A DNA stretch of 64,000 nucleotides. Origin: Negaprion brevirostris. Its lineage: Eukaryota. Numbering within the stretch: position 1 is the stretch's first letter; every line of letters begins with the position of its first letter. The stretch is taken from positions 19,197,512 through 19,261,511 of the forward strand of contig JARDVH010000130.1 in the NCBI GenBank assembly GCA_030324005.1, given 5' to 3'. Below the pieces are notes generated by a model, which saw only the letters and a program-made list of their open reading frames with translations, did no database searches and was not told where the DNA came from. Shown here in pieces: positions 27,082 to 29,404 of this stretch. A program made the translations under genes and the position numbers.

Positions 27082-27144
27082 ATTGCCATAGATATACCTC
27101 GTATGACTCCTGAGAGTTTAATACTGCAACCAAAAGTAAAAGAG
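27082..27144 (+). CDS. TBC1D22A: Alternative arginine-finger exon 'a' (63 nt, phase 0-0): IAIDIPRMTPESLILQPKVKE, TBC1D22A-type
   Basis: Acceptor tttttctaaaccatcag|ATT, donor GAG|gtaaga. Contains IxxDxxR and resembles recalled human TBC1D22A IHIDIPRMSPEALILQPKVTE. Confidence 0.9.
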
Positions 27145-27172
27145 GTAAGAGCTTTGGGAATGAAGTAAAATA

Positions 27173-29114
27173 CTACCTTTGCCCTGCCTCATCCACCAGT
27201 ACCATAACTAAAGCTCCTGTGATTGGCTATATGGTTTGATTTTTGCAGAGCTGGGTTTCTCATTTGATCAATTCCAATTGCTTAAAATCCTTCCTGTGTA
27301 TTTTCTTGAAATTGCTTCATTCAGTATTATTTGTGATGCCTTATGATTGTTATATCAACACCAATTACTCGTGTATTAATGATGAAACATGGTTTGAGAG
27401 TCATCCACAGAATTAGTACATGACTTGAGTATTGGGGCTTGATTTTTTTTATACAGGGCTTTTTTACTCTCTGACAGCCGTATGTGCCTGTAGAGGCTAA
27501 GCTATAGGTGAAAGGACAAGCACAAGAATCTGTGCTTCTGCCAACACCAACTTATTTGTCAGTTAGGAAAATTGCTATTTATATTGGAATTTGCAACAGC
27601 CCCTTCCACTTTGTCAAAGTTGCAACATCTTGTGCCACCTCATCAGTCATTGATAATGTTGGATTGCTATAAATGTCTACAACTTGACAATTTCAATTAA
27701 TGATGGACATTCCCATTGAACCGAGGGCAGAATCACAGTGCACTGGTGTGGTGTGAAGCTCAGACAAACCTTGCTGGTGTTTTAGTTGTTTTCAGTGTTT
27801 TACATACATTCTCATTCATAATCTCAGTTTGATGCTCATGGTTAGAATGCTATTTGGGGCCATGTTTGCTGACTAAACTTTTGTTGTATTGACTCTTAAA
27901 TAATACTAGGAAGTGAGATAAAGATTGTGACTAGCTCCCTGTTATGAATTGTGAAGGAAAAGAGAGAATTTGGGAGCTGTTTTAAGAGGTAAATCTTATC
28001 TAGTGGAGATTATCTCGGTTTTGATTTTGTTGTATTGGCACTGCAGCCACTGAAAAAAGTAATGATGACCCTCAGCTGTAAAGCAAGCAGGAAGCTGTAG
28101 TTAGGTTGTGTCCTAGTTGCCAAGGAATGGAGAAAGCAGTTGTGGGTTTCTGCAGCATTCCAGCTATCTGTTTTCCTCAAGTGGTTGGGTCTACACAATG
28201 TGTAGAAATTGGGAGATGATCTCTTGTGCTATCAGAGGACCCTTTAAGGGGAAGAGACAGCTCATGTCAAGGGTTGGTTGATTGAAGATGCAAGAGTAGC
28301 TATCTTCAAGCTGATCTTGTCCTTTTGTCACTGGTGAGCAAAGATACCACTCCTGCAGTAGAACTCTGCTTTTTAATGCAGTTGACTTGTGACAAATGAA
28401 TGGGTGGTAGCAAGTGAAAATTTAATGGCGTTTAATTAGGAAGTCAGTTTGCAAGCATAGCTTCTCAACATGACTATTACCCTCAATTCCAATAATTGAT
28501 TTCAAGTGCTTCCTCCTATGGACGTTTATCACTTAACTTCCCGTGCCGATAGATGCACGCACCACTTTTGTCCAAACTGACTCGTCTCGGCAGTTGAATA
28601 ATACTAGGTGCTGAAGTTCAGTATTCGTGTCAATGTGAAGTTAGAGGTTCCGGTCTTCAGAATTCAGCTATCGATCTGAGTTATGCTAAACAAGGAAACG
28701 CTGAAAAAAGATTGCAAGTAAAACTGCCCAAAAACAGCTATTTTGCACTAAGACAGTCACATGCAAACTTATGTTCTTATGTACATACATTGCTATTGTC
28801 CATTGACCTAGTGAAGTAACTTATCCTTAGAATTTTTCTAATTGCATAACAATCACCATGATTTTTGCTGATTAAGCTATAAACTCTTGAGATAAGATTA
28901 GAGGTCAGTTTGCAAACAAGAAGCTTATATAGGATCAAAGATTGCTTAAAAATTTGCACAGTAAATAAACTAAAAATGTGGATGGTTCTTAAGAATGTTT
29001 CATCTCTTCTAGATTTCTGTAAAACTGGAATATGGAAATGATAGTAAAACTGAATTATCTTTAAAGTATTGATTCACCCAGCTCTGCAAATACAGCAGGC
29101 ATGGACAAAGCTAG
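27173..29114 (+). promoter_or_regulatory. Putative long-range intronic RNA duplex between the two alternative exons
   Basis: 27242-27256 tttgcagagctgggt is the exact reverse complement of 29076-29090 acccagctctgcaaa. 27173-27189 ctacctttgccctgcct pairs with 29097-29114 aggcatggacaaagctag (15 pairs, 2 mismatches, 1 bulge), in nested geometry. Confidence 0.6.
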
Positions 29115-29338
29115 GATTCAGAGTTGCAAAGTTGGTTCTGTTGCTAAATGTATTCAAGGAGCACTTAACCTTGAATTGTGACTCTTCAATACATTGAGTA
29201 TTCCTAAACAAATGGCACCGCACTCTGCAGCTGAGAAACTTGGCTTTGAGCCCCAGCTAAATGCTAGCAATCGTCTTGACTGGCTGCACCACCAGGAATA
29301 ATTTTGCCTCTGCTACTGTTTTCTTTCTTTATTTACAG

Positions 29339-29404
29339 ATTCATATTGATATTCCAAGAACTAATCCTCTTATTCCTCTCTTTCAACAAGCTTCTGTGCA
29401 AAAG
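29339..29404 (+). CDS. TBC1D22A: Alternative arginine-finger exon 'b' (66 nt, phase 0-0): IHIDIPRTNPLIPLFQQASVQK, TBC1D22B/Gyp1-type
   Basis: Long polypyrimidine tract ttttctttctttatttacag|ATT, donor AAG|gtgaga. Contains IxxDxxR and resembles recalled human TBC1D22B IHIDIPRTNPLIPLFQQPLVQE. It lies within ORF 29261-29455. Confidence 0.92.

Follow-up and report, generated by a model that had tools for sequence, protein, structure and literature searches.

An ancient duplicated arginine-finger exon with loose splicing in shark TBC1D22A

The window analyzed here, a 64,000-nucleotide stretch of the Negaprion brevirostris genome, carries two adjacent homologous exons, 7a and 7b, that each encode the arginine finger and following loop of TBC1D22A, a Golgi trafficking enzyme and Gyp1-type TBC Rab-GAP. 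The pair probably goes back to an old tandem duplication whose copies are spliced separately, giving proteins with 7a, 7b, both or, rarely, neither, and the swap is likely to alter the loop, Rab preference or strength of the enzyme. Duplicated exons of this kind form a class that is already known; the present pair is a real, ancient duplicated catalytic exon with loose splicing and is apparently undescribed.

The gene and its exon pair

By sequence comparison, the gene in the window is shark TBC1D22A. Four window exons translate identically to Mustelus asterias TBC1D22A isoform P0396 (tblastn), the top named matches of a protein search with exon 6 were TBC1D22A, and the top Foldseek match of the structure models was human TBC1D22A (2qfz). 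Both the IxxDxxR arginine finger and the YxQ glutamine finger, which PMC13090580 and PMC5902221 describe as the fingers of TBC GAPs, are present. The gene spans more than 300 kb, and the 2.69-Gb genome contains two family members, the window gene and a TBC1D22B paralogue on contig C143. The exon for TBC1D22A residues about 460–493 sits between N gaps on contig C99 (17241291–17241392, L014), away from contig C130 with the rest of the gene, a placement that is likely a scaffolding error. Features are collected in Table 1, with exons 5, 6, 7a/7b and 8 numbered as in the human gene.

Table 1 Positions of the exons and candidate elements in the window
Feature	Position	Strand	Basis or remark
Exon 5, coding, TBC1D22A	14165..14235	+	tblastn 24/24 identical to Mustelus asterias isoform P0396; AG/GT ends
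Exon 6, 129 nt, phase 0-0, ends DTYRQ = start of arginine-finger helix	25656..25784	+	Homologue search; tblastn identity to P0396
Conserved intron stretch upstream of 7a	27016..27081	+	One catshark model takes an extended acceptor here
Exon 7a, 63 nt, derived 21-aa arginine-finger exon, human TBC1D22A type	27082..27144	+	
Exon 7b, 66 nt, ancestral 22-aa arginine-finger exon, TBC1D22B/Gyp1 type	29339..29404	+	
Exon 8, 115 nt, starts IFERILF, YxQ glutamine finger (YVQ)	47040..47154	+	
QKI-type motif ACTAAT, candidate regulator	29413..29418	+	9 nt after 7b donor; background 0.17 per 400 nt
Predicted RNA stem, arms about 29422–29455 and 29613–29647	29422..29647	+	MFE extension covers 7b donor

Exons 7a and 7b lie 2194 nt apart, are bounded by AG and GT, are in phase 0-0 and contain no stop codon. 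Their peptides are identical at 10 of 22 residues, with one gap and the same motif, and the two are adjacent, with no exon between them. The sequence-only reading of this DNA had given coordinates, lengths, spacing, splice boundaries, phase, absence of stops and peptides that all proved exact, and its statement that either exon joins DTYRQ to IFERILF agrees with the flanking exons, which end and start in that way and to which both copies join in frame. Across the window, the pattern 'AG followed by [ILV]xxDxPR' matched twice on the plus strand, at 7a and 7b, and nowhere on the minus strand; no third or degenerate copy was found by motif and similarity scanning of 25785–47039. Because the flanks of 7a and 7b have no mutual similarity, the duplication appears to be old.

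A Logan contig of run X1, which may be the genome's own source, covers 26577–29800 with 0 differences, and both exons are also covered by contigs from two other organisms. In the contigs of two relatives, 7b and 29306–29470 were unchanged versus 12 changes in the rest of the 611 nt (p about 0.02); the two rows within the exon derive from contigs of the paralogue. The contigs of five runs behaved as genomic DNA and are therefore silent on splicing.

Within 7a, an internal alternative donor at 27135/27136 (AAA/GTAAAA) yields an 18-residue 7a, represented in RefSeq models of six shark species. Translation of the conserved stretch upstream of 7a follows the 22-residue extension of catshark P0299 for its first 15 residues before the frame shifts, and the conservation of the stretch points to a possible splicing element. 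Intron 6 also holds a short interspersed repeat fragment with high contig depth (25986–26070), and repeat fragments shared with the introns of the paralogue are scattered over the window.

Conservation and ancestry of the two copies

The protein search with exon 6 returned 936 proteins, of which the best 120, plus cluster members, were used. Among the 96 chondrichthyan proteins obtained, 7a was present in 21 of 21 sampled species and 7b in at least 18 of 21, and the three species without 7b among the matches listed constitute no evidence of loss. The two exons occur in the same order in sharks, rays, bichir, sturgeon, bowfin, gar and many teleosts. With the isoforms of a species counted repeatedly, all 199 fish 7a peptides and all 213 fish 7b peptides have the catalytic Asp and Arg; on the same repeated count, the 199 7a peptides comprise 34 variants with 9 of 21 positions invariant, and the 213 7b peptides comprise 5 variants with 18 of 22 positions invariant. 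This distribution indicates that both copies have been retained since the divergence of sharks from bony fish more than 400 million years ago.

Comparison with the paralogue exon revealed 2 nonsynonymous and 6 synonymous differences in 7b (pN 0.04, pS 0.40), and pS values of 0.82 and 0.77 were obtained for the flanking exons. Synonymous change thus affected 6 of 15 sites in 7b versus 41 of 51 in the flanking exons (Fisher p 0.007), and the low pS suggests that part of the conservation of 7b may act at the RNA level. In catfishes (P0153, P0154, P0157 and P0224) and salmonids (P0369 and P0371), 7a diverges faster and 7b is unchanged, which suggests relaxed use of 7a in these fish.

To polarize the two copies, we used 31 orthologues identified as non-22A by sequence, drawn from a representative search (best 150 of 1146). 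The corresponding segment is always 22 residues long in these outgroups, with F15, Q16, Q17 and Q21 invariant, and on average they match 7b at 15.2 positions versus 11.5 for 7a. Exon 7a kept the Met that follows the arginine in 30 of the 31 outgroups. Since 7b fits the outgroups better and 7a has lost one residue and three of the invariant F15, Q16, Q17 and Q21, 7b is by this comparison the conservative ancestral form and 7a the derived one. A search against solved structures gave human TBC1D22A (2qfz) as the sole match of 7a, and TBC1D22B (6d0s) and Gyp1 (2g77 and 1fkm) as matches of 7b, bearing out the earlier assignment of 7a to the human 22A type and 7b to the 22B/Gyp1 type.

The shark TBC1D22B paralogue has a single 7b-type exon, located 458 nt after exon 6. 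No 7a-type exon was detected in it: the 458-nt intron 6 is gap-free and motif-free, and the 30.6-kb intron 7, which contains about 1.2 kb of N, has no motif. With the ancestral exon alone in shark TBC1D22B, the duplication may be younger than the A/B split. Of 23 proteins with an amniote-type exon 8, among which those traced to an animal group come from turtle, bird, rodent, primate and carnivore, 7a is found in 18 and 7b in none; the other 5 are without the segment. On these 23 sampled proteins and the human catalogues, amniotes likely lost 7b from TBC1D22A. The sequence-only reading had proposed that the A/B paralogue difference began as, or persisted as, a splicing choice; the first is unproven, and the second, a splicing choice that fish retained and that the loss of 7b then fixed in amniote 22A, fits the data from the proteins sampled.

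Splice forms and candidate regulation

All four combinations of the two exons were found among annotated proteins. The 96 chondrichthyan proteins from 21 species comprise 51 with both exons, 33 with 7a only, 6 with 7b only and 6 with neither, as recorded in isoform models that are mostly automated and may include rare junctions, and the double form is annotated in 18 of the 21 species. Both single-exon forms occur within one species in Mustelus, two Scyliorhinus, Stegostoma and Heptranchias, and among bony fish in zebrafish, gar, pike and herring; in zebrafish, both exons are in NP_999964.1 (curated), 7b in AAH85412.1 and 7a in XP_005168596.

A second source of evidence was a set of proteins found in Logan contigs only, with long or full-length open reading frames in contigs of 1.6–4.3 kb, which must be spliced since the gene spans >300 kb. 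From elasmobranchs, 7a-only forms were represented by 7 proteins (18 contigs), double forms by 5 (8 contigs) and 7b-only forms by none. From teleosts, 7b-only forms were represented by 7 proteins (18 contigs), 7a-only forms by 1 (1 contig) and double forms by none, with four teleost rows deriving from a query that contained 7b. Spliced transcript contigs of skate type contain 7a alone or both exons. The balance therefore appears to depend on lineage, led by 7a in skates and by 7b in teleosts.

These forms sustain two proposals of the sequence-only reading, namely that the exons are homologous, alternatively spliced catalytic exons (10 of 22 residues shared, with isoforms of each kind in relatives) and that one locus makes A-like and B-like forms, as single species have isoforms of both the 7a-only and the 7b-only kind. 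Its third proposal, that the exons are mutually exclusive, fails, as the double form is the commonest annotated class in cartilaginous fish (51 of 96) and also occurs in spliced contigs. We examined the arrangement for the features that PMC5740500 names as enforcing exclusion (a frameshift, a donor-to-branch-point distance of <50 nt or a U2/U12 clash) and found none: co-inclusion of 63 and 66 nt is in frame, the intron between the exons is 2194 nt, the sites are GT-AG throughout with ordinary GT donors, and the AG-free zone before 7b is 41 nt. Distant branch points may still play a part.

Candidate regulatory elements lie downstream of the 7b donor. In addition to the QKI-type motif and the stem in Table 1, an RBFOX-type TGCATG is located at 29527 (+123 from the 7b donor) and is enclosed by the predicted stem; neither motif type was found beside 7a. 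The stem has a z of −2.85 in a region that was chosen after the repeat was seen, its strength was reached by 5 of 313 shuffles, and it was the strongest of 21 real 3-kb windows, with a nearly equal runner-up. Together, the motifs and the predicted stem are a lead to candidate regulation of 7b. Nothing pointed to transposons as the source of the stems, as the flanks of both exons were single-copy by a DNA search that skips common words. A perfect 15-bp inverted repeat in the 7a–7b intron (27242–27256/29076–29090) was set aside, as 9 of 200 shuffles reach it and one arm is changed in organism C. A box downstream of 7a (27242–27266) can pair with 29076–29090 or with 29228–29248 upstream of 7b at marginal significance, and such alternative pairing would loop out the intron in between.

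Structure models, competing readings and significance

Structures of two isoforms were modeled with AlphaFold2. In the 7a-only isoform, the finger helix spans residues 268–283, with pLDDT values of 86–93 over residues 261–300, and Foldseek superposition gave an rmsd of 1.6–2.1 Å to human 22A versus 3.1 Å to 22B. In the double isoform, the helix covers 271–280. A stretch with pLDDT below 50 follows at 284–304, where the remainder of 7a lies together with the finger motif of 7b; beyond it, the latter half of 7b is ordered and runs on into the next helix. The rmsd of this model was 2.0 Å to 22B versus 3.6–3.7 Å to 22A. The double form is thus predicted to be a chimera with a 7a finger, 21 looped-out residues and a 7b loop. 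Its register comes from one alignment and was not forced, because most single-exon rows in the alignment had aligned to 7a. Among rays, only sawfish and Narcine, two species, have substitutions in 7b, all in the predicted looped-out part, a weak sign in favor of the chimera.

According to PMC5902221, TBC GAPs provide both the Arg and the Gln finger in trans, and the target of Gyp1 is Ypt1; according to PMC12631847, human TBC1D22B is a RAB1B GAP that binds GTP-RAB1B, and binding of TBC1D22A to RAB1B is negligible. Because 22B acts on RAB1B, Gyp1 acts on Ypt1 and 22A binds RAB1B negligibly, the ancestral loop may, by analogy, track Rab1-type activity, with 22A and 22B differing elsewhere too. 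The duplicated exon encodes the Arg finger and the following loop, and 7a-only and 7b-only forms would be two active GAPs, the latter resembling 22B/Gyp1 and the former mammalian 22A, that would differ in Rab preference or rate. The double form, in whose model a flexible insert of 21 residues directly follows the first arginine, would probably be a weakened or altered GAP, and the form with neither exon, having no finger, would be inactive. Loss of 7b in amniotes would then have fixed the mammalian A/B difference.

A more far-reaching version takes the exon pair as a four-state active-site splice switch, in which 7a and 7b serve different Rab targets (Rab1 for 7b, as in TBC1D22B/Gyp1), the chimera is deliberate and the functional gap between mammalian 22A and 22B stems largely from this exon, fixed by the amniote loss; we hold it to be a doubtful possibility. 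It is unlikely that the exons are functionally mutually exclusive, with only the single-exon proteins of importance and the double and neither forms a splicing leak caught by automated annotation. In its favor, the exons specify one and the same structural element, several species have both single forms, none of the 8 teleost Logan-only proteins has both exons, and the double-form model shows a shortened finger helix and 21 low-confidence residues. However, 8 of 26 elasmobranch Logan contigs have both exons and 0 have 7b alone, double forms are annotated in 18 of 21 species and include the curated zebrafish NP record, and no barrier of frame, steric hindrance or splice-site class stands in the way of co-inclusion.

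Another account, which we consider improbable, applies to cartilaginous fish and makes 7a near-constitutive and 7b an add-on cassette, whose 21-residue insert silences or dampens the GAP and leaves its specificity largely as it was. It would explain why skate-type transcripts contain 7a or both exons, and it is consistent with the low synonymous divergence of 7b, the unchanged 29306–29470 in two relatives, the candidate QKI/RBFOX motifs and stem by the 7b donor and the confinement of the ray changes in sawfish and Narcine to the predicted loop-out. Yet forms with 7b alone are found in 5 shark species and predominate among teleost transcripts, and a mere off-switch needs no near-invariant ancestral peptide such as that of 7b, with Asp and Arg kept in 213 of 213. 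A decaying pseudo-exon as one of the copies, or an assembly artefact behind the pair, is barely credible, with nothing in its favor: contiguous contigs span both exons and rule out an artefact, and both copies are conserved in sharks and bony fish, always keep Asp and Arg and are present in transcripts.

Separately spliced copies of an old duplication, the reading we prefer, can be placed beside known systems. Tandem exon duplication-derived substitutions, as set out by Martinez-Gomez et al. 2021 (PMC8373072; for example PKM, FYN and SCN exon 5), likewise consist of neighboring homologous exons that are ancient, agree in phase and nearly in length, and exchange a segment near a functional site, and the TBC1D22A exons are adjacent homologues of at least 8 aa with annotated isoforms that substitute one for the other. 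The TBC1D22A pair differs from that class in that the duplicated exon includes the catalytic residue, joint inclusion is frequent and amniotes apparently lost one of the copies. The 236-event human list in the PMC8373072 supplement contains no TBC gene, with PKM and FYN found as controls. Strict mutually exclusive exons, as in Hatje et al. 2017 (PMC5740500), resemble the pair in being homologous, of similar length and in the same frame, with bridging isoforms, here represented by proxy as single-exon proteins of both kinds in relatives. However, the strict definition given there rejects in-frame pairs with joining reads, and 7a and 7b join in frame and are seen joined in spliced contigs and models of related species. 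TBC1D22 is absent from 10 supplements of PMC5740500, including 1,399 validated exons, and one supplement of PMC9741552, which may not hold the gene list, has no TBC1D entry.

Human TBC1D22A (2qfz), TBC1D22B (6d0s) and Gyp1p (1fkm and 2g77) share the TBC fold and the IxxDxxR and YxQ fingers with the fish protein; each solved protein has one such segment, whereas the fish gene has the two and is able to splice them into one protein. Whether the pair was already annotated in some species had been asked in the sequence-only reading, and it is indeed present in fish RefSeq/UniRef isoforms: the TBC1D22A models (XP_078091656.1, NP_999964.1, XP_005168595.2 and XP_005168596.2) record all four combinations with no interpretation. 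A full-text literature search, with most subscription journals outside its coverage, found no description of the 7a/7b pair.

Rab choice by TBC GAPs is poorly understood, and TBC1D22A has no settled target: PMC3622926 gives it a putative Rab33 preference, and PMC6639060 judges Rab33 unlikely for its GPCR effect. The pair is an ancient duplicated catalytic exon that is invisible to human-centred catalogues because the mammalian lineage apparently kept only the derived copy. The fish gene offers a natural controlled experiment, with two proteins that are identical but for the finger-and-loop segment separating human 22A from 22B, and its interest would be higher if the swap proves to set Rab specificity.
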